From assembly GCF_004010195.1 (NCBI RefSeq), contig NC_057718.1:82789122-82825703 (forward strand): a stretch of DNA of 36,582 nucleotides. Direction: 5' to 3'. The notes beneath the pieces are model-generated. The model searched no databases. It was given only the letters and a program-made list of their open reading frames with translations, and was not told where the DNA came from. The stretch comes from Chiloscyllium plagiosum (lineage: Eukaryota). Shown here one piece after another: positions 3,041 through 29,288 of this stretch; within the stretch, counting starts at the first letter, position 1; every line of letters starts with the position of its first letter. Made by a program: the position numbers and the translations under genes.

Positions 3041-3540
3041 NNNNNNNNNNNNNNNNNNNNNNNNNNNNNNNNNNNNNNNNNNNNNNNNNNNNNNNNNNNN
3101 NNNNNNNNNNNNNNNNNNNNNNNNNNNNNNNNNNNNNNNNNNNNNNNNNNNNNNNNNNNNNNNNNNNNNNNNNNNNNNNNNNNNNNNNNNNNNNNNNNNN
3201 NNNNNNNNNNNNNNNNNNNNNNNNNNNNNNNNNNNNNNNNNNNNNNNNNNNNNNNNNNNNNNNNNNNNNNNNNNNNNNNNNNNNNNNNNNNNNNNNNNNN
3301 NNNNNNNNNNNNNNNNNNNNNNNNNNNNNNNNNNNNNNNNNNNNNNNNNNNNNNNNNNNNNNNNNNNNNNNNNNNNNNNNNNNNNNNNNNNNNNNNNNNN
3401 NNNNNNNNNNNNNNNNNNNNNNNNNNNNNNNNNNNNNNNNNNNNNNNNNNNNNNNNNNNNNNNNNNNNNNNNNNNNNNNNNNNNNNNNNNNNNNNNNNNN
3501 NNNNNNNNNNNNNNNNNNNNNNNNNNNNNNNNNNNNNNNN
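3041..3540. other. Assembly gap (500 N)
   Basis: N run. Confidence 1.
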
Positions 3541-11551: not shown

Positions 11552-12780
11552 TTAAATAAAAGCTGAAAGAATTGCAGATGCTTGAAATCAGAAACAAAGG
11601 CAGAAATTGCTGGAAAAGCTCAACAGGTCTGGCAGCATCTGTGGAGAGAAATCAAAGTTAACATTTCGGGTCCAGTGACTCTTCCTCAGAACTAATGGTC
11701 ACTAGGAAAGTGTTGCTTTATATGCAGAAGTTAGGGCGGGGGAGGGGGATAAGGAGTAAACGATAGGTGGGGGTAGAGCCTAAAGAGAGAGAAGAACAGT
11801 TGGACAGACAAAGGAGTGGACAGTGATCTGGCTGGGTGGGTAAATAACTATAAATGGGGACTGTTAGTGGTGAACAATGGGTAATGTGGGATAAGGACAT
11901 GGGAGGGCTCAAGCCCTGAAATTGTTGAACTCGACATTGAGGCCATAGGGCTGCTGGGTCCCAATGCAGAAAATTAAGTGCTGCTCTTCCAACTTGCGCT
12001 GAGCTTTGCTGGAACACTGCAGCAAACCTGAGACAGAGATGTTGGCCAGGGAACAGGGTGGGCCGTTAAATGACAGGCAACTGGAAGCTCAGGGTCTTTT
12101 GTGCAGACAGAATGTAGGTGCTCTGTGAAGCAGTCACTCAGTTTACACATTTTCCCAATGTAGAGGAGACCACATTGTGAGCAGTGAATACTGTAGACTA
12201 AATTGTGGGAAGTGCAGATGAAATGCTGCTTCACTTGGAAGGTATGTTTGGACCTTTGGATATTGAGGAGGGAGGAAATAAACAAGCAGGCATTACACCT
12301 TCTGTAGTTGCAAGGCAAGGTGTTATGGGCTGTGGGTGGGTGGACGTTGGGAGTGAAGGAAGAGTGGACCAGGGTGTCCTGGAGAGAACGGTCCCTGTGG
12401 AAGGATTGACAAGGAAGGGGAGGGGAATATGTGTCTGGTGGTGGCATTTCACTGAAGGTGGCAAAAATGGCGGTTACTGATCCTGTGGATGTGGATACTG
12501 ATGGGATGGTAGGTAAAGACAAGGGGAACATTACCGCTGTTGCGGTAGGGTAAAGGCCAAAGTGCAGGAGATGTGTCAGATCCAGCTGGGGGCCCTGTTC
12601 ACCTCGGTTGAGGAAGAAGGTGGACATTTCGTAGACTCCCTTATTGAAGCTGGCATCATCAGAACAGATGTGAGGGAGATGGGGGAGCAAGGAAAATGGA
12701 GTAGAGTCTTTACAGGAAGTAGGGTGTGAGAATGTATAGTTAAGGTAACTGTGGGAGTCCCTGGGTTTGTTATGGACATC
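11552..12780 (-). mobile_element. Penelope-like element: RT C-terminus, GIY-YIG and terminal repeat with hammerhead (11656-11693)
   Basis: HNLVYSIHCSQCGLLYIGK, FHRDRSLQDTLVHS, ICSDDASF; agttCTGAGGAagagtcactggacccGAAATGTTaact on the minus strand. Confidence 0.88.
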
Positions 12781-12789
12781 TAAGATCCT

Positions 12790-13120
12790 GAAAAATCTTT
12801 AGGATGAGGCTGTGGAGAGGGCGTTCCCTTGTATGGGTGAATGTAAAACTGCTTAAAATAAGGGGCTACCATTTAAGACAGAGATTAAAGGCATCTTTCA
12901 TTTCTTTCAGAGGGTTGAGTGTTTGGATTTGTCTTCCTCAAAACTGGTGGAGTGGACTCTTTGAATATTTTTAAGGCCAAGATAGATGGACGGTTGATGA
13001 GAAAGGAGGTGAAAGAGTATTGGGAATAAACAGGAACCTGGAATAATCAAATCAGGAATGATGTTATTACATTGTCACCAAGCTAGAAGAGTCAAATAGC
13101 TTACTCCAGCTCCTAATTTA
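12790..13120 (+). mobile_element. Decayed CR1-type 3' fragment
   Basis: ccatttaagacagag, gaatatttttaaggc..gatagat, ttactccagctcctaat, shared with CR1 tails such as 35664-36445. Confidence 0.55.
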
Positions 13121-13273: not shown

Positions 13274-13538
13274 GTTCCTGAAGAAGGGCTTATGCCCGAA
13301 ACGTCGATTCTCCTGTTCCCTGGATGCTGCCTGACCTGCTGCGCTTTTCCAGCAACACATTTCCAGCACAGGACTGTACAGGGTCCAGGCTATGCAGTAC
13401 AAAACCACATGGGAAAAGTGACGACTACAGATGCTGGAGATCAGAGCCAAGAGTTTGGCGCTGGAAAAACACAGCAGGTCAGGCAGCACCCGAGGAGCAG
13501 GAGAATTGATATTTCGGGCATAAGCCCTTCATCAGGAG
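13274..13538. mobile_element. Inverted pair of Penelope-type terminal repeats, each with a hammerhead core
   Basis: + strand CTGAAGAaGGGCttatGCCC GAAACGTC at 13278-13305; inverted copy CTGATGAagggcttatgcccGAAATATC at about 13504-13538. Confidence 0.8.
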
Positions 13539-14145: not shown

Positions 14146-14180
14146 AATAAAAAGCTGGTTGTCAATGTATCTCTTCAGTC
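14146..14180 (+). promoter_or_regulatory. Candidate core promoter of the cystatin gene
   Basis: TATA-like AATAAAAA at 14146-14153 and initiator-like TCAGTC (A at 14177) about 30 nt downstream, 27 nt before the ATG. Confidence 0.55.
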
Positions 14181-14203: not shown

Positions 14204-14410
14204 ATGGCAGCTATCTGGATCGGTGTGTGTGCCCTACTTTCTGCTGCTTTCTTCACCTCAACTTCAGCAATAAATGATGAAGAGGGTCTTCTTGGTCAGC
14301 GTTTCGAGGTAGATGTGACCAACAAATATGTTCAAAAAGCTGCTGCGTTCATAAAAGAAGAGTCACTTTCCGATCATCAAAAAATCACAGTGGAGAAAGC
14401 TCAACAGCAG
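14204..14410 (+). CDS. Type-2 (secreted) cystatin-like gene, coding exon 1 (aa 1-69)
   Basis: ATG in good context (aagATGG); hydrophobic signal peptide MAAIWIGVCALLSAAFFTSTSA; N-terminal LLG; helix-like VQKAAAF; ends KAQQQ followed by CAG|gtaaca donor in phase 0, the intron position after the Q of QxVxG seen in type-2 cystatins. Confidence 0.9.
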
Positions 14411-14581
14411 GTAACAATGTAGTGGGCCTTGCCTACATTGATTATTTATCTGTGTCCCTTTGTATATAATCACTACTACTGTGCAACAATGTTAAATTCC
14501 AGGGACTTTCCTTACCCTCCTTAATAAGGATAAGCAGGAGCCAAATTTGAATTTTCAGCGTTGTCCTGTTGTGGTAAATGC

Positions 14582-14941
14582 CATAGAGTCATAGAGTCAT
14601 AGAGGTGTACAGCATGGAAACAGACCCTTCGGTCCAACCCGTCCATGCCGACCAGATATCCCAACCCAATCTAGTCCCACCTCCAGCACCCGGCCCATAT
14701 CCCTCCAAACCCTTCCTATTCATATACCCATCCAAATGCCTCTTAAATGTTGCAATTGTACCAGCCTCCACCACATCCTCTGGCAGCTCATTCCATACAC
14801 GTACCACCCTCTGCGTGAAAAAGTTGCCCCTTAGGTCTCCTTTATATCTTTCCCCTCTCACCCTAAACCTATGCCCTCTAGTTCTGGAACTCCTTGACCC
14901 CAGGAAAAAGACTTTGTCTATTTATCCTATCCATGCCCCTC
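14582..14941 (-). mobile_element. Young CR1 3' end in cystatin intron 1
   Basis: RGNFFTQRVVRVWNELPEDVVEAGTIATFKRHLDGYM; (catagagt)n tail. Confidence 0.92.
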
Positions 14942-15079
14942 TTTAACAATTTACCAACAGTTTTCTGAGGTTTATGAAAATGCTTTGCAGAGACTTATGA
15001 CAACTCTGGTCACTGCCAGCTCGGTGCAAGATTTTCACTGAGACCAGAATTCTCAAGCACTGAGAAGATCAGCAACTTT

Positions 15080-15340
15080 ACAGAAGATTTGTAGCTCAGG
15101 TCGAAGTTCTGGTTGTAAGTTTGCTCGCTGTTGTGGTAGGGAAGAGAGGCTGTAAGGGCCGAAGTGCAGGAGGTTTGACGGGGGCCCTGTTCACCACAGG
15201 GCTGGGGCGTCCTCAGTTGAGGAAGAAGGTGGACATTTCATAGGCTCCCTTGTTGAAGCTGGCATCATGGGAACAGATGCAACAGAGATGGAGGAAAAAG
15301 GAGTCCCTTCCAGCTCAGCGAGCAAACTTATATCCAGAAC
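15080..15340 (-). mobile_element. Penelope fragment flanked by a 25-bp inverted repeat
   Basis: 15131-15305 resembles 12535-12700; inverted repeat 15106-15130 / 15316-15340 (2 mismatches). Confidence 0.65.
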
Positions 15341-16489
15341 TGAAAAGATCAATTGGATGCCAGAAAAAGTCTGAAGTCTGGTAGGCTCAGGGTAATAATG
15401 TGCTAATTCAGATATGCTACATTGGTGTATCATGATAAAGCACAGAATCAGCATGAATTCATTCCTCCTAATCGTCCATTTTTGATTAGCAGGGCCACTA
15501 ATTTCTATCTTCACAGCAAAAGAACAGAATAGACACTTGTAAAATCCAGAAATAATATCTGTTGACTTAATTTACTTATATTTGACTCAATCGTTATGCA
15601 TTAGTCTTAAGTTGTTTCATTGCTTGAAGATGATACATAACTATAGCCGAATGGAAATTTTTCCTTGCCCTAAATCCAGATATAATATGGTGAGGTTAAA
15701 GTAGTTGATACATAAATAAATTTACGTTTGCTCAGTGATAGCACTCTCAACCCTGAATTAGGCCGCTTTCAAACTGACTATTAAAGCAGTGCTACAATTT
15801 TGAATAAGGCATTAAACCAATTGGCTCTGCCTGATTATTTTGGGGAGTAGAAGTGATCAGGAGATATCCTTTAAAGGAATTGTTCAAGAGTCCTGACTAA
15901 CAATTATCTGTCAACATCATTACAGAGTAGCTGGTCATTTATCTCATAGCTGTTTTCTGATGTGCACAAAATAGCTATTACACCTAACAGTACTAACCAC
16001 ATTTGAAGTTGTGAAAGTGTAATCACACCATTTGTTTATATTTACCTGTTTTATTGGTGTCTCTTTTAATTTAGTTATTCACTAGATATTCTTCTTGATT
16101 CTTATCCTCAAGTCCTGAAGACACCTAGCTTGGCTGCACAATTTAAAAAAAAATTCATTTCAAATCCCACTATGTTCTGCTCTTCTCTATCCTTGTAACT
16201 TCCAGCTCTCTAAGAAACATTTTTCTAATTCTGGCTTGTTGCACATTCCCAACTTTGCTAACATGCCTTCAGCCGCTAAGTTCTGAAACACTGGCGCTCC
16301 CTTCCCAGAACCCTTTGCCCTGCCAACTTTAAGATGATGCTTAAAATTAAAATCTCTTCGAAGCTTTTGAGCTTTTAACTGAATAGCTCGGTCTTGCATC
16401 TGCGTCAATATCTTACCAAAGATGTTCCTCTGACGAACATTGGAATAATTTACTATGTTAAAAGCAATACATAAATACAAATTGTTGTC

Positions 16490-17620
16490 GTTAGTGAAGG
16501 CCAGGTGGACCTTATTGGTGTTGTAGGAGGGAAGAGAAGAGGTGAGGGCTGAAGGGTGGGAAATAAGTTGGACATGGCTGAGGGTCCTGTTTACCACAGT
16601 GGTGGAGAATCCCTGGTAGAGGTAAAAAATGGGCATTTCTGAAACACCCTAATCTCTTAAAGATGGCATCGTTAGGGCAGGTGCAATGGTGATGGAGAAA
16701 CTCAGAGAAAAGGATAGAGTCTTTACAGGGAGCAGTATGAGAGAATGTATAGTCCAGGTAACCTTGGGAGTCAATGGGTTTGTAATGAATATTGGTATCC
16801 AACCGATTGCCAGAAATGGATACAGGGACGTTGCGGAAGGGAAAGGAGGAGTCAGAGATGGACCAGGTGAAGGTGAGGGTGGGGTGGAAATTGGAAGCGA
16901 AATGGATAAACTTCTCCAATTCCAGAAGAGAGAGGGAAGCAGTAGCAAAGATGTCACCAAAGGAAGACTTGTGGGTGGAGCTCGAGTTGGACTGGAACAA
17001 CGACTGTTCCACGCACCCAAAAAAAGTGACAGGCATAAGTGGGGCCCATGCAGGGACCCGTGGCCAACTCTTTGGCCTGAAGAAAGTGAGAGGAGTTAAA
17101 GGACAAGTTGTTCGAAGTGAGGGTGAGCTTGGCCAGGCGGAGGAGGGTGGTGATGAATGGGGACAGTTCAGGCCTTTCTTCCAGGACGAAGTGGAGAGCC
17201 CTGAGACCATCCTGATGGGGGATGGACGTGGAAAGGGATTGCACATCCATGAAGAAGGAGATTCAGCTGGTGCCTGCAAACTGGGAATTTTGAAAATGAT
17301 GTAAAGTGTCAGCAGAATCGTGGATGTAAGTAGGAAGGGACTGGGCAAAGGGAGAAAAAAATTGAGGTAGGAAACAATAAGCTCCGTAGGACAGATACAA
17401 CGGGTCTGCCCGAGTGACCTTGTTTGTGGATTTTGGGAAGGAGGTCGAAATGATATGGGGTTGGGGGGAAAGCCATGAGGTGAGAGGCTGTGGAGGGGAG
17501 ATCCGTACATGATCTGAGGTGAACACAATGGTCTGATGCTCGATGGTGGGCTGATGGAGGGTGGGGGGGGGAATAGGATGAGGTGTCCAAGAGCTGGTGC
17601 TGACCTTCTCCAAGGGTCAC
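16490..17620 (-). mobile_element. Penelope-like reverse transcriptase remnant in cystatin intron 1
   Basis: LLPKIHK, MDVQSLSTSIPHQDGL, NNLSFNSSHFLQAKELATGPCMGPTYAC, FASNFHPTLTFTWSIS, TNIHYKPIDSQGYLDY in shifting frames. Confidence 0.9.
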
Positions 17621-17768
17621 CAAACAATAACAGCAATATCCTTGTCAGCAGCTCCTGGCCTACTAGGAGCTTGTTAAAAATCTGAATGTCACAAAATGTC
17701 ATTGATTATTGACTTTCAGCAATTGATTTTGTAACATTGGCTAATGTTCAACATGTTATTGTTATCAG

Positions 17769-17834
17769 GCTGTTGGCGGATTGATGCTGTATCTAACCAT
17801 TACCATTGAATCGGAAATGCAGACCAGTGTGACA
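17769..17834 (+). CDS. Cystatin-like gene, coding exon 2 (AVGGLMLYLTITIESEMQTSVT)
   Basis: CTAAT branch-like site 17741-17745, ttatcag acceptor, ACA|gtaaga donor; 66 nt, phase 0-0; splicing to exon 1 creates Q-A-V-G-G (QxVxG) followed by a YLTITI beta strand. Confidence 0.88.
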
Positions 17835-18044
17835 GTAAGAAATGCTTTGTATTGTTACTAATTACAGCGAAAACAGTGAATTAGCTTTCTTCTTTAGCGT
17901 GCAGACAACTTGGACATGCTGGTATTTACACCCTGACCAAAGTGCATACTTGACACCAGCCATTCCGCTCCCTCAGAGTCATTTTACTGTTATTTTGGAA
18001 GTTACTTTGCTTGTGCTCGGGAGTACAATTATAATAGACCAAGC

Positions 18045-18430
18045 CCAAAGAACTGCGAATACTATAAATCAGAAACGAAAGCAGAATTGCTGGAAAAGCT
18101 CAGCAATCTGGCAGGGTATGCGGAGAGAAATCAGAGTTAACATTTCAAGTCCAGTGACCCTTCCTCAGAAATGGAAGCTCAGGGACTTTTTTTTTTTGCA
18201 GTCACACAGTCTACACTTCACTTCCCCAACATAGAGGAGACCACATTGTGAGCAGTGAATGCAATAGATGGTAGCTAGGAGAAAGCTGTATTTTATGTAG
18301 AGGACTTTTAAAGGGCTTTTGCCTGAAACGTCGATTCTCCTGCTCCACCAATGTTGCCTGAACTACTGTGCTTTTCCAGCACCATACTCTCAACCCTAAT
18401 CTCCAGCATCTGCAGTCCTCACTTTCACCA
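18045..18430. mobile_element. Penelope-type terminal repeats and small GIY-YIG scrap
   Basis: 18045-18172 matches 11565-11693 (minus hammerhead); 18225-18262 matches 12150-12190; 18310-18428 matches 13285-13360 and 21805-21907. Confidence 0.75.
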
Positions 18431-18834
18431 TTTTGGCTAATATACAGAGTGGAAAGTATTTAGGGTCATTGTACTCTGTCTCGAGCAGTTCATATTTAAT
18501 AGGACCACATCTCCCAATATACATTGCCTGGTGAATGAGAAAGGCATTGGTCAATAGTGAAGCCCATGCTGAAGGATTAATAGATGTGAAGTTAGGGGTT
18601 GAGTGATGTCAGAGGTTCACCCAGCTTTCAATTACATCGAGAATTGTAAGGTTAAATCCTCTGTGAGCTCCAAATGATATAAATCAGCTCAAGTCAATGC
18701 GCAGAGGATTTGAAGCAGAGATATCCACAACTGCGATAAGAATTTTAAATGTGCCTTAGCAAGTCATTATGCTAGCTGGTGTGAATGGGCAGGAAAAACA
18801 TCTAATTGCTGAACACTTCTTGAAAATGAGACAA

Positions 18835-19325
18835 AAAAGACCTGCAGATGCTGGAATCCAAGGTAGACAAGCAAAGGGCTGGGAGAACACAGCAAGCCAG
18901 GCAGCATCAACAGCTGGAGTCCTCCAGAAGGGTTACACCCGAAACATTGAATTAGAATTCCTACAGTGTGGAAACAGGCCCTTCGGCCCAACAGGTCCAC
19001 ACTGACCCTCCAAAGAGTATCCCACCCAGACCCATTCCCCTACCCTATTACTCTACATTTACCCTGACTAATGCACCCAACCTACACATCCCTGAACATT
19101 ATGGGCGTGGCCAATTCACCTGACCTGCACATCTTTGGACTGTAGGAGGAAACTGGAGCACCCGGAGGAAACCCACGCAGACACAGGGAGAATGTGCAAA
19201 CTCCACACAGGCAGTTGCCCGAGGCTGGAATCGAACCCAAGTCCCTGGTAGCAGTGCTAACCACTGAGCTTCTTCACTGGCTCATGCTGCCTGGCTTGCT
19301 GTGTTCTTTCAGCCTCCTGCCTGGA
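18835..19325. mobile_element. Fold-back Penelope-type terminal element split by an HE1 SINE (minus, about 18951-19268)
   Basis: Arms agaacacagcaagccaggcagcat / atgctgcctggcttgctgtgttct are inverted; HE1 consensus lies between them. Confidence 0.8.
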
Positions 19326-19642
19326 AATGGCAGCTTGGTAGCTTTGGAAGGAAACACTGCAGTGTCTGGTCATTCAGTATCTGGAAAAGAAGCTGTAGTG
19401 CCCAATAATAAAACCTTTTACTTTGATAAGAGAATAAATTATCAAACAAATGCCAACATTAACATTATTTTCTTTCTGAACTAATAGTCAGAGGTTGATT
19501 ACTGAGAAGCAGCACAAAGTGGATTACTAGATATGTTAAGTCACAGATTGATAGTGCCAAATTAGAACACTAATGGTTTTATTAGCAACAATGCAAGGTG
19601 GCTTTGTTATATTCACATGAAGATGTTTATTTTCCCTTTCAG

Positions 19643-19735
19643 AGATGTGAAGCCGCTGTGTTCAGCCGTCCCTGGCTCGAGCAAATGACTCTTGAAAGTT
19701 TTGACTGCAAAAGTCCTAACCAACTAATGATTTGA
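19643..19735 (+). CDS. Cystatin-like gene, coding exon 3 (RCEAAVFSRPWLEQMTLESFDCKSPNQLMI*)
   Basis: Strong polypyrimidine acceptor ttttccctttcag; PW motif; two Cys 20 residues apart as in the C-terminal cystatin disulfide; TGA at 19733-19735. Confidence 0.9.
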   Translation, partial: RCEAAVFSRPWLEQMTLESFDCKSPNQLMI

Positions 19736-19865: not shown

Positions 19866-19871
19866 AATAAA
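19866..19871 (+). terminator. Candidate polyadenylation signal of the cystatin gene (alternative at 20014-20019)
   Basis: AATAAA 130 nt after the stop codon, followed by a GT/T-rich tract (tttgttttctt). Confidence 0.55.
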
Positions 19872-20244
19872 TAAGCATTATCCAAGCATTTGTTTTCTTA
19901 TTTGCCCTGAACACTGTCTATATCTTGCAGATCCTTTACACAACTACCCAGTTTTTTCATGAAAGTGACACCAATGTCCCTGTAGGCAATTAAGGAATGT
20001 CACCATTTGACAGAATAAAATTCAAGCTGTAATTCACAGTTACTTACCTTTGAAAGATTTGGTTCCCTGTAGCTGAGTGGCTTTGTTCATCATAAAACCC
20101 TGAAAGCATGTCTTTGTTCAATGGCAGGGATGGACATTGAAAAACATTTCCAAGTGATCCATTGAGCCATGGATATTGTCTCTTGCCCCGACAGGTGAGC
20201 TCTCAACTCTCCCACAGAAATGTCCTTATAAAGCCTGTCTAACT

Positions 20245-21764: not shown

Positions 21765-21907
21765 TGAAAAATGTGTTGCTGGAAAAGCGCAGCAGGTCAG
21801 GTTACGCCTGAAACGTCGATTCTCCTGCTCCTTGGATGCTGCCTGACCTGCTGCGCTTTTCCAGCAACACATTTTTCAGCTCTGATCTCCAGCATCTGCA
21901 GTCCTCA
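21765..21907. mobile_element. Fold-back Penelope-type terminal repeat
   Basis: tgaaaaatgtgttgctggaaaagcgcagcaggtcagg is followed by its exact reverse complement at about 21842-21878; partial hammerhead (GAAACGTC only) in the loop. Confidence 0.8.
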
Positions 21908-23660: not shown

Positions 23661-24432
23661 TAGAACGCATATCATATTTTTGAACTTTGTTTATATTTGT
23701 GATCAGACGCATGCTTTTTGTTTACATGAGTTAGCCAATGTACTTTTAATAAAATAATATAAAAGATTTTTAACACAACTGAATTTTAAAGAAAATATGT
23801 AAGAAAATTTAAAAAGATCTTAAACAGAAAAAAAACCTAACTCAGACCTCTGCTTTGACAATAACCTTTACAGATACTCAACTCCAGTGAAGTATCATTC
23901 CTTTCTTAAGTTTTTAATTTCTTACTTAACTCACAAAATTGCATGCTTTACCCTTCGGACTTTGTACACATTCACCAGATATGACTCCCTTTATCTCTCC
24001 TAGAGCTGCAAATGTACAGATACCCACTGATGTCTCTCATAACCTTAGGGGAATCTCAAGGGTTTTCCCAACTGTACTCCTTGAATAGCTAAATAAACTA
24101 AAGATTTCTTTCCAGCCTGAACTACTACCCTCCTGCTGGTATATCATTTTGTTCTGAACTCAACCTGCTAATGGTCCCTAACCATATGTTTCTTTGTACG
24201 TCATAAAATGTTCAATTTTGTAAACATTTTCATCAATTAATTCCCCATATATTTTATCTAGCCATTCAGTTTGAGAAACATCTTTTCTTAGAAATGATGT
24301 TTGGACTCTGTTAAAAAACAACTCTCTGACCTCTTGTTAAAAAAAAGTCCTCTTCACAGAATTAAAACTAAAAACCCATTGCCTCTACTTTAGAATCCAA
24401 ATTCCTGAGCTGGAACAACATATTTTATGCTT

Positions 24433-24760
24433 TACTACACCTGGCAATTGTATAATGCAAATTACCCTTGCCATTGGTCAGTACAAACCTGAAGTGTATC
24501 CAGGTACTGCATATTTGGGCACAGACTGCTTTACTATCTAAGTAAGAGGTAGCTGAACAGTTGCTTCAGAGATTCTTGGTCTAGTAGGCTGACTTAGGTT
24601 GAGAGAGACCCACCCTCCCATCCTGGCACTTTCCCCTGTACTACACCTGGCAATTGTATAATGCAAATTACCCTTGCCATTGGTCAGTACAAACCTGAAG
24701 TGTATCCAGGTACTGCATATTTGGGCATAGACTGCTTTACTATCTAAGTAAGAGGTAGCT
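24433..24760 (+). repeat. 122-bp direct duplication (24433-24554, 24639-24760)
   Basis: Copies differ at one visible position (cacag/catag). Confidence 0.95.
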
Positions 24761-25469: not shown

Positions 25470-27390
25470 TGCCGAGCAACCTACTAGAGAAGGTGCAAAC
25501 CTTACCCTACTCTTGGGAAATAAGGCAGGGCAGGTGACTGAGGTGTCAGTGGGGGAGCACTTTGGGGCCAGAGACTTCTATTCGATTAGATTTAAAATAA
25601 TGATGGAAAAGGATAGACCAGATCTAAAAGTTGAAGTTCTAAATTGGAGAACGGCAAATATTGACAGTGTTATGCAAGAACTTTCGAAAGCTGATGTTCG
25701 CAGGTAAAGAGACGGCTGGAAAGTGGGAAGCCTTCAGAAGTGAGATAACGAGAATCCAGAGAAAGTATATTCCTGTCAGGGTGAAAGGGAAGGCTGGTAG
25801 TATAGGGAATGCTGGATGACTAAAGAAATTGAGAGTTTGGTTAAGAAAAAGAAGGAAGCATATATAAGGTATAGACAGGATAGATCGAGTGAATCCTTAG
25901 AAGAGTAGAAAGGAAATAGGAGTATACTTAAAAGGGAAATCAGGAGGGCAAAATGGGGACATGAGTATTTTGCCTCAGTATTTACTGTGGAAGATATAGA
26001 CTGTAGGGAAATAGATGGTGACATCTTGCAAAATGTCCAGATTACAGAGGAGGAAGTGCTGGATGTCTTGAAATGGGTAAAGGTGGATAATTCCCCAGGA
26101 CCTGATCAGGTGTACCCCAGAACTCNNNNNNNNNNNNNNNNNNNNNNNNNNNNNNNNNNNNNNNNNNNNNNNNNNNNNNNNNNNNNNNNNNNNNNNNNNN
26201 NNNNNNNNNNNNNNNNNNNNNNNNNNNNNNNNNNNNNNNNNNNNNNNNNNNNNNNNNNNNNNNNNNNNNNNNNNNNNNNNNNNNNNNNNNNNNNNNNNNN
26301 NNNNNNNNNNNNNNNNNNNNNNNNNNNNNNNNNNNNNNNNNNNNNNNNNNNNNNNNNNNNNNNNNNNNNNNNNNNNNNNNNNNNNNNNNNNNNNNNNNNN
26401 NNNNNNNNNNNNNNNNNNNNNNNNNNNNNNNNNNNNNNNNNNNNNNNNNNNNNNNNNNNNNNNNNNNNNNNNNNNNNNNNNNNNNNNNNNNNNNNNNNNN
26501 NNNNNNNNNNNNNNNNNNNNNNNNNNNNNNNNNNNNNNNNNNNNNNNNNNNNNNNNNNNNNNNNNNNNNNNNNNNNNNNNNNNNNNNNNNNNNNNNNNNN
26601 NNNNNNNNNNNNNNNNNNNNNNNNNNNNNNNNNNNNNNNNNNNNNNNNNNNNNNNNNNNNNNNNNNNNNNNNNNNNNNNNNNNNNNNNNNNNNNNNNNNN
26701 NNNNTTTAATTTAGATAAATGCGAGGTGCTGCATTTTGGGAAAGCAAATCTTAGCAGGACTTATACACTTAATGGTAAGGTCCAAGGGAGTGTTGCTGAA
26801 CAAAGAGACCTGGGACTGCAGATTCATAGCTCCTTGAAAGTGGAATCACAGGTCGATAGGATAGTGAAGAAGGCGTTTGGTATGCTTTCCTTTATTGGTC
26901 AGAGTATTGAGTACAGGAGTTGGGAGGTCATGTTGCAGCTGTACAGGACATTGGTTAGGCCACTGTTGGAATATTGCATGCAATTCTAGTTTCCTTCCTA
27001 TCAGAAAGAATTTGTGAAACTTGAAAGGGTTCATAAAAGATTAACAAGGATGTTGCCAGGGTTGGAGTATTTGAGCTATAGGGAGAGGCTGAACAGGCTG
27101 AGTGTTTTCCCTGGAGTGTCAGAGGCTGGGGGGTGACCTTATAGAGGTTTACAAAATTATGAGGGGCATGGATAGGATAAATTGACAAAGTAGGAGAGTC
27201 CAGAACTAGAGGGCATAGGTTTAGGGTGAGAGGGTGGTACATGTTTGGAATGAGCTGCCAGAGCAAGTGGTGAAGGCTGATACAATTGCAACATTTAAAA
27301 GGCATCAGGATGGGTATATGAGTAGGAAGGGTTTGGAGGGATATGGGCTGGGTGCTGGCAGTTGGGACTATATTGGGTTGGGCTATCTGG
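25470..27390 (+). mobile_element. CR1 LINE ORF2 remnant spanning a gap
   Basis: EQPTREGANLTLLLGNKAGQV (end of APE domain), DNSPGPDQVYPR, LHFGKAN, RPLLEYCMQF, VWNELPE; stops and deletions. Confidence 0.92.
26126..26704. other. Assembly gap (579 N)
   Basis: N run. Confidence 1.
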
Positions 27391-28582: not shown

Positions 28583-29288
28583 GTGTACAGAGTAGAAATA
28601 ACGTTCAAAAATATAACCAAATTCAAAAAAGCTATGTACGGTGGCTCATTCGTTAGCATGACTACCTCATAGTGCTAAGGACTCAGGTTCAATTCGAGCC
28701 TTGCTTGGGGTTGTGATGCTCTTTGGAGGATCAGTGCAGACTTGATGGATCTCTCCTTATAATGTAGGGATTCGATTGCCGGTCTTTCAATTGTTTATGG
28801 AGAGTGAACACTTGAATAGTTTAACTGTTGTAGTGAAGGTTACTTTAATGTGGCTTTGAGTTTGATAGCTGAACAGTTGCTTCAGAGATTCTTGGTCTAG
28901 TAGGCTGACTTAGGTTGAGAGAGAGTCTTCTGATGCCTTGTTTCCATGTAACTGGTTTGCAGCACTTGGAATCAGAGACTGTTTTTACCTGCAACACAGG
29001 GGTAACTAGGGAACAGCTCTTTAACTGTAATCTTTATATCAAGCTAACACTCAAACCCAAGTTATATTAATGGTTGGGCAGTCCCACTAGTCCACTCCAG
29101 TAAAATTGAAACTAGCTATTTAAATCCAGTCCTTGAGGGTGAAACAACATGCCTGTAAGAGTTGGCTTTCTGTCAAGAGGGGAGAGATTGTCATCTCCCT
29201 TCAGTATCTCTTCTTGTTAAATCTCTCCCTGTTTGAAGTTTCCCTGATAATTTGGATGCAATATTCCAATAGCTTCACACAAGAATTT

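Follow-up and report, generated by a model that had tools for sequence, protein, structure and literature searches.

A compact, single-disulfide cystatin gene of putative type 2 descent in the shark Chiloscyllium plagiosum

Introduction

Vertebrate type 2 cystatins are two-headed, with one site for papain-type cathepsins and another for legumain. A stretch of 36,582 nucleotides from the shark Chiloscyllium plagiosum (contig NC_057718.1, positions 82,789,122 to 82,825,703; hereafter the window) carries at positions 14204-19735 a three-exon gene that appears to encode a secreted cystatin with one of the two usual disulfides. The question raised by this locus is whether the short form is genuine and what such a protein would still inhibit. 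We conclude that the gene is genuine and that it represents a true shark-lineage variant within a well-known family of inhibitors. Reasoning from sequence and with moderate confidence, we further propose that its product is a secreted, shark-lineage offshoot of the type 2 cystatins that would inhibit papain-family proteases only. As the first head was apparently kept and both parts of the second deleted, such a protein would be a natural test of the roles of the appended loop and the first disulfide in specificity, stability and domain swapping.

Gene structure and encoded protein

The gene lies on the forward strand and consists of three open exons joined at two phase 0 junctions; the spliced product is 121 amino acids followed by TGA. 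Coding exon 1 (14204-14410, 207 nucleotides, residues 1-69) encodes in order the signal peptide, an N-terminal trunk with G31, strand 1, a shortened helix and strand 2, and its last residue is Q69 of the QxVxG motif. The predicted signal peptide (14204-14269, residues 1-22, cleavage after Ala22 placed by eye) belongs to an N-terminal hydrophobic stretch with an 11-mer hydropathy maximum of 2.49. The codon of G31, the conserved N-terminal glycine of the papain-binding wedge and invariant in our alignments, is at 14294-14296. Coding exon 2 (17769-17834, 66 nucleotides, residues 70-91) supplies AVGG (the rest of loop L1), strand 3 and a short turn, is free of Cys and lacks the appended loop. Coding exon 3 (19643-19735, 93 nucleotides, residues 92-121 and the stop codon) contributes C93, strand 4, P101-W102 (loop L2), strand 5 and C113. 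The only other Cys of the product, residue 9, lies within the signal, leaving 93 and 113 as the sole mature cysteines, and the distance from the Gln of QAVGG to the Pro of PW (hereafter Q-to-P) is 32 residues.

Both introns are of phase 0 and GT-AG type: intron 1 (14411-17768, 3358 nucleotides, repeat-rich) follows the donor CAG/gtaaca, intron 2 (17835-19642, 1808 nucleotides) follows ACA/gtaaga, and both acceptors are an AG after a pyrimidine-rich run. Intron 1 is placed directly after Q69 of QxVxG, and the human CST3 gene likewise has an intron right after this Gln. An in-frame TAG lies five codons 5' of the ATG. The exon boundaries were set in the original prediction before the relatives described below had been looked at. 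When the gene model of a relative, Chiloscyllium punctatum P0001, was compared with the window by tblastn, it matched the three exon segments in order (E 3e-34, 4e-5 and 5e-11), and its sole further match was a signal-peptide-like chance match (E 0.73). The predicted junctions thus rest on conservation across relatives. Splice sites, translation and tblastn together confirm what had been claimed for the gene: three phase 0 exons, 121 residues, G31, QAVGG, PW and two mature cysteines.

Relatives of the short cystatin in sharks

Exon 1 alone was used as a query against 1.84 billion cluster representatives (E up to 0.001) and returned five proteins, all of them shark gene models: those of Chiloscyllium punctatum (GCC20796.1, P0001; 78% identical to the window protein), Stegostoma (XP_048392476.1, 52%), Pristiophorus (UPI00398E8B74, 51%), Cetorhinus (XP_078413717.1, 44%) and Scyliorhinus torazame (GCB79151.1, 42%). 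A profile built from these five added Rhincodon (XP_048457385.1, 59%). The six are already public, come from more than one annotation source and are mostly auto-named 'cystatin-like'. They share with the window protein the signal peptide, the short Q-to-P spacing and the single Cys pair and form one group with it, whereas their mature domains differ widely. Two of them, P0005 and P0006, carry one extra unpaired mature Cys each (Cys101 and Cys78, respectively), which could permit disulfide-linked dimers.

A profile search with the mature domain retained 26 proteins from 539 candidates, namely the six short relatives, a Heterodontus model (XP_067901774.1, P0010) and 19 two-disulfide cystatins from bony fish, squamates, a rodent, a ray and two further sources. 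This search was word-based and shallow, so bony vertebrates are not thereby shown to be without the short form. The family compared below comprises eight rows (the window protein, the six short relatives and P0010), and the canonical set comprises 19 rows, nine of which are close poeciliid sequences, so that canonical counts are not independent.

Against the Protein Data Bank, the family profile matched chicken cystatin best (E 4e-11) and then cystatin C, with stefins A and B at E 0.15-0.96; G31 aligns to the Gly at the start of the chicken cystatin chains. Searches with single exons were less productive: none of four Pfam queries with single window exons matched, none of 59 candidates passed when exon 1 was searched by words against longer proteins, and an atlas search with exon 1 gave a cystatin lead at 0.75 only.

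Loss of the appended loop and the first disulfide

The first deletion lies between QxVxG and PW. The Q-to-P distance is 30-35 residues in all seven short rows, which represent six genera including that of the window, versus 46-56 in 18 of the 19 canonical rows; the 19th lacks PW. The first Cys of the appended loop, expected at Q+18, is present in none of the eight family rows versus 19/19 canonical ones. Cysteines at P-8 and P+12 are found in 8/8 family rows and 18/19 canonical rows, which identifies the retained pair as the C-terminal one, and C93 and C113 would form a disulfide between strands 4 and 5. In the alignment to chicken cystatin (E 4e-11) the gap coincides with the loop that joins strand 3 to strand 4. 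Judged from these alignments, some 17-18 residues appear to have been lost between strands 3 and 4, corresponding to the first disulfide and the legumain exosite loop. As the two-disulfide feature is absent, we describe the protein as type 2-derived and not as a canonical member of I25B.

A comparable cut is said to have been made in the laboratory. Auerswald and colleagues reportedly described in 1994 a chicken cystatin construct, 'del-helix II', from which Cys71-Met89 had been removed and whose papain-family inhibition is said to have stayed at the wild-type level. This construct reportedly had one disulfide, was of stefin size and carried nearly the same cut as the shark protein; unlike the shark protein, it reportedly kept the helix-end loop. 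The open-access literature searched holds no mention of it.

A second deletion at the helix end

A further deletion, not foreseen in the original prediction, concerns the end of the helix. The distance from the N-terminal Gly to the Gln of QxVxG is 38 in the window protein and 38-42 in the family versus 43-44 in 18/19 canonical rows. Asn at Q-16, the position of Asn39 of cystatin C, occurs in 18/19 canonical rows versus 0/8 family rows, the position being approximate owing to the deletion itself, and the window protein has no Asn anywhere from Q-24 to Q-7. No conserved Asn or Asp is found in the helix-end segment across the family. About six residues thus appear to be missing at the helix end, which would remove the Asn39-type residue.

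In the second inhibitory site, for legumain, which is present in cystatins C, E/M and F (PMC4506564, PMC6109925), Asn39 is the reactive centre and the Cys73-Cys83 loop is the exosite loop (PMC4506564); the latter is also defined between strands 3 and 4 in PMC6109925. The exosite loop is not present in the family of the window protein, as judged from the alignment gap and from a four-residue turn in the model of P0001. The two shark deletions therefore seem to coincide with the two published legumain-binding elements, a link that, like the second deletion itself, goes beyond the original prediction.

Predicted fold

An AlphaFold model was made for the mature P0001 protein from a six-row alignment. 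It has a predicted local distance difference test (pLDDT) of 84, a predicted template modelling score (pTM) of 0.73, a 12-residue helix and a four-residue turn between strands 3 and 4. Compared with human cystatin C it gives Z 11.5 and a root-mean-square deviation of 1.8 over 80 residues, and human cystatin C ties with potato multicystatin, tarocystatin, cystatin F, CRES and chicken cystatin as fold match; a tarocystatin-papain complex is also among the top matches. The full-length model of P0001 gives the same ranking, and a wide search is likewise led by cystatins. P0001 is thus predicted to have the cystatin fold, an antiparallel sheet around one helix. For comparison, the helix of cystatin E/M is described as having five turns, and its appended structure as clamped by a disulfide (PMC8070812).

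The original prediction had proposed a structure prediction as a check and had held that the appended subdomain was lost and one disulfide retained. The predicted fold of P0001, the six shark relatives, the alignments, the four-residue turn and the cysteines at P-8 and P+12 in all eight family rows bear these points out, the C-terminal disulfide being itself a prediction.

Origin and place among cystatins

In an unrooted tree of 21 of the 27 rows (six Poecilia near-copies omitted), the seven short rows and Heterodontus separate from 13 canonical rows with support of 96/97, and in an unrooted tree of all 27 rows with the loop removed, the family and the 19 canonical rows split at 95/92; in the latter the seven short rows alone form a group at only 86/76. 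These trees have long branches and were built from the present rows only, without reference sets of cystatins C, E/M, F or stefins. Together with the six relatives they support the earlier suggestion of a type 2-derived, lineage-specific subfamily, whose members were already public as 'cystatin-like'. A canonical two-disulfide cystatin is present in a ray (P0024), which makes it likely that cartilaginous fishes have the short form as an additional paralogue and not in place of the canonical one.

The window protein resembles the vertebrate type 2 cystatins (I25B; chicken egg-white cystatin, C, E/M and F) in its signal peptide, Gly, QxVxG, PW, C-terminal disulfide spacing, three coding exons and fold. 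It differs from them in lacking the first disulfide with the appended loop and the conserved Asn39, and in a helix of about 12 residues (in the P0001 model) in place of five turns. Stefins (I25A) lack signal peptide, disulfide and PW, all three of which the window protein has, and on the sequence evidence an origin from stefins is unlikely. With stefins and phytocystatins the shark family shares a compact domain without the appended loop, and potato multicystatin and tarocystatin lead the feature search; both groups, however, have no disulfides and are far weaker sequence matches, and the likeness is most simply seen as convergence by deletion.

One-disulfide secreted cystatins have been described from invertebrates, namely ctenophore type 2 cystatins, Dirofilaria Di-CPI and Opisthorchis OvCys6 (PMC7913475, PMC6523577, PMC10386146). 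Like the shark family they are secreted and single-domain, but they belong to separate lineages, Di-CPI keeps an SND legumain motif, and the likeness is one of disulfide count. For vertebrates, Kordis and Turk regard disulfide conservation as apparent, and no family of this kind is entered for cartilaginous fishes in Table 2 of their 2009 survey (PMC2784779). The open-access literature searched, which excluded subscription journals and bioRxiv supplements, holds no account of a short shark cystatin group; papers on stingray venom and on dogfish name cystatins without structural detail in the parts consulted. A shark skin mucus proteomics study (PMC10707392) gave no match, in the supplementary file searched, for two UniProt accessions of relatives. 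A highly expressed 'cystatin-like' catshark transcript, cstl1 (XM_038787500.1; PMC13188829), could not be tied to the family and probably lies outside it: translation by eye of its forward primer yields, in one frame, E-L-E-L-R-S, which resembles the two-disulfide ray protein P0024.

Conservation of the wedge and proposed mode of action

The papain wedge of cystatins is formed by the N-terminal segment, QxVxG and PW (PMC8070812). G31, Q69, V71, G73, P101 and W102 are invariant (6/6) in the rows of the window protein and of the five relatives that the exon 1 search had returned. Four of these, V71, G73, P101 and W102, lie outside the exon 1 query, and all four are among the 9 invariant positions of 40 ungapped columns (hypergeometric p 0.0014); the invariance of wedge residues that were absent from the query argues that selection keeps the wedge. 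Signal residues 9-17 are also invariant (6/6), and mean identity over 21 pairs is 85% in the signal peptide versus 41% in the mature domain (100% versus 73% in the closest pair), the signal-peptide conservation being partly built in, as the five relatives were found with a query that contains the signal. Plant cystatins and stefins are without the loop and yet inhibit papain.

We propose that the locus is a functional single-domain gene whose ancestor, within the shark lineage, was a secreted type 2 cystatin. Removal of the signal would leave an acidic protein of 11 kDa, in which a five-stranded sheet surrounds a shortened helix and is held by a single C93-C113 clamp. The wedge, made up of the G31 trunk, L1 (QAVGG) and L2 (PW), would bind cysteine proteases of the papain family (C1A) reversibly, and the two deletions would have taken away the second, legumain-binding site. 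With the legumain elements deleted, the protein should be an extracellular inhibitor of cathepsin/papain-type enzymes only; papain-type inhibition is predicted to be kept and legumain inhibition to be lost. We infer in the same way that the protein is expressed and secreted. The weakest step is a role in defence, which is plausibly suggested by rapid change in the mature domain as against near constancy of the signal peptide.

A bolder version of this proposal, which we regard as tentative and doubtful as a whole, would see an undescribed orthologous family present across sharks, a natural one-disulfide 'mini-cystatin' from which the two legumain elements disappeared jointly and whose mature part evolves rapidly to ward off, outside the cell, cysteine proteases of parasites or microbes, the Heterodontus and Pristiophorus forms representing stages of loop loss. 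Such a family would stand as an exception among vertebrate type 2 cystatins, whose two disulfides are regarded as conserved. Quite apart from this bolder version, the shark family adds a lineage-specific group to the inventory of vertebrate cystatins and might be of use as a small secreted scaffold. It is only moderately surprising, since the mechanism is known and similar compact cystatins occur in plants and invertebrates.

Alternative explanations

Several points weigh against a secreted inhibitor of papain-family proteases only. The relatives are known from computational gene models alone, only two of five reach the curated cutoff of Pfam Cystatin, and the structural model is that of P0001 instead of the window protein; to these are added the interdependence of the canonical rows and the built-in share of signal-peptide conservation noted above. 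Chicken cystatin becomes less stable when nine residues of its appended region are deleted (PMC9814716), and most cystatin-derived families of vertebrates have lost inhibitory activity according to Kordis and Turk (PMC2784779). The last point leads to a reading that we judge rather improbable but the most serious of the rivals, a secreted protein of cystatin fold with a new job (antimicrobial, mineral binding or inhibition of another protease class) and weak inhibition of papain at best. CRES, Spp24, cathelicidin and latexin are precedents, the loss of inhibition is a common trend in the survey just cited, and the fast divergence of the mature domain (41% mean identity), the weak Pfam scores and the two structural deletions would fit. 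Non-inhibitors are also nearly equal to cystatin C in the fold search (CRES Z 11.6, monellin 10.6, latexin 10.5), and SQAPI, an aspartic-protease inhibitor, is a secondary match in both Pfam and fold. What tells against a new job is that all six wedge residues (G, Q, V, G, P and W) stay invariant in six rows while most other positions vary, and that non-inhibitory families arose by mutations in structurally important regions (PMC2784779). An inhibitor of papain-family proteases is thus still preferred, and the matter of legumain is next. Residue D58 of the window protein is an Asp within the shortened helix-end loop, P0004, P0005 and P0010 have an Asn somewhere in this segment, and an Asn39Asp mutant of cystatin E still inhibits legumain (PMC4506564); D58 could therefore stand in for Asn39, and the protein would still inhibit both papain-family enzymes and legumain, the latter through a helix-end Asp or Asn and with no help from the exosite loop. 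We consider this quite improbable, as neither residue is conserved there, the exosite loop that contributes to the legumain contact is absent, and stefins, which have neither element, are degraded by legumain (PMC4506564).

Whether the short form is an artefact, by way of an additional or extended exon that carries the first disulfide, an assembly frameshift in exon 2 or an unexpressed remnant, bears on all of the above. The +1 frame of exon 2 (17769-17834) reads Cys-Arg near the place of the expected lost Cys, with a stop three codons later; the pair is probably a by-product of Met-Gln codons, and a frameshift was ruled out because both shifted frames contain stops and the relatives agree with frame 0. 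An extra Cys-bearing exon between 17834 and 19643 had been named in the original prediction as a finding that would overturn it. A scan for in-frame Cys-bearing exons gave no candidate in intron 1 and one weak candidate of 42 nucleotides in intron 2 (18489-18530), which no relative matches. A profile of the canonical loop run against 131 open stretches of both introns gave a best match of only E 0.12; its positive control was itself in the profile and shows only that the search ran. Together with tblastn of the relatives, these results led us to reject a hidden Cys-loop exon, the scan and the profile having given nothing credible in intron 2, and reading through the exon 2 donor meets a stop after eight codons. 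The Heterodontus model P0010 does not fit the pattern: it groups with the family, yet its Q-to-P distance is 75 residues, with one Cys in the long stretch; its N-terminus looks truncated and retains the end of the family signal peptide. The last part of the stretch resembles the end of the cystatin C loop. Faulty modelling could explain P0010; alternatively, it may have kept a loop without the disulfide and be an intermediate. An artefact is nevertheless very improbable: the short form recurs in gene models of six genera produced by more than one annotation source, the three exons are intact, and the assembly has no gap within the gene. Hardest to credit is a stefin (type 1) that gained signal peptide, PW and disulfide, in the manner of the atypical secreted stefins of flukes and myxozoans (PMC7913475). 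The size is similar, but the profile matches chicken cystatin at E 4e-11 versus 0.15-0.96 for stefins A and B, and PW with cysteines at P-8 and P+12 reproduces the exact type 2 spacing. The position of intron 1 directly behind the Gln of QxVxG, shared with human CST3, also speaks against a stefin.

Other features of the window

The sequence AATAAAAA at 14146-14153, about 50 bases 5' of the start codon, is a possible TATA-like element, and an AATAAA at 19866-19871 on the forward strand, 130 bases after the stop codon, is a likely polyadenylation signal; a second AATAAA is at 20014. Motif scanning and tblastn revealed no further cystatin gene in the window, nor did any neighbouring gene come to light there, and Pfam matched none of eight long frames tested.

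Two open stretches on the reverse strand, 16512-17705 (397 codons) and 11974-12798 (274 codons), look like decayed Penelope-type retroelement sequence, and 12606-12774 and 16615-16787 are 73% alike. Two assembly gaps, at 3041-3540 (500 N) and 26126-26704 (579 N), lie outside the gene. At 24430-24760 a 125-bp stretch is repeated at 98% about 200 bp apart, and an exact 59-bp copy pair (24550-24608 and 28866-28924) is 4.3 kb apart; these copies may reflect recent duplication or an assembly artefact. Inverted pairs of short interspersed repeats at 13276-13537 and 21765-21878 match their own reverse strand at 69% and 76%, respectively, and belong to a family of repeats that occurs many times in the window.

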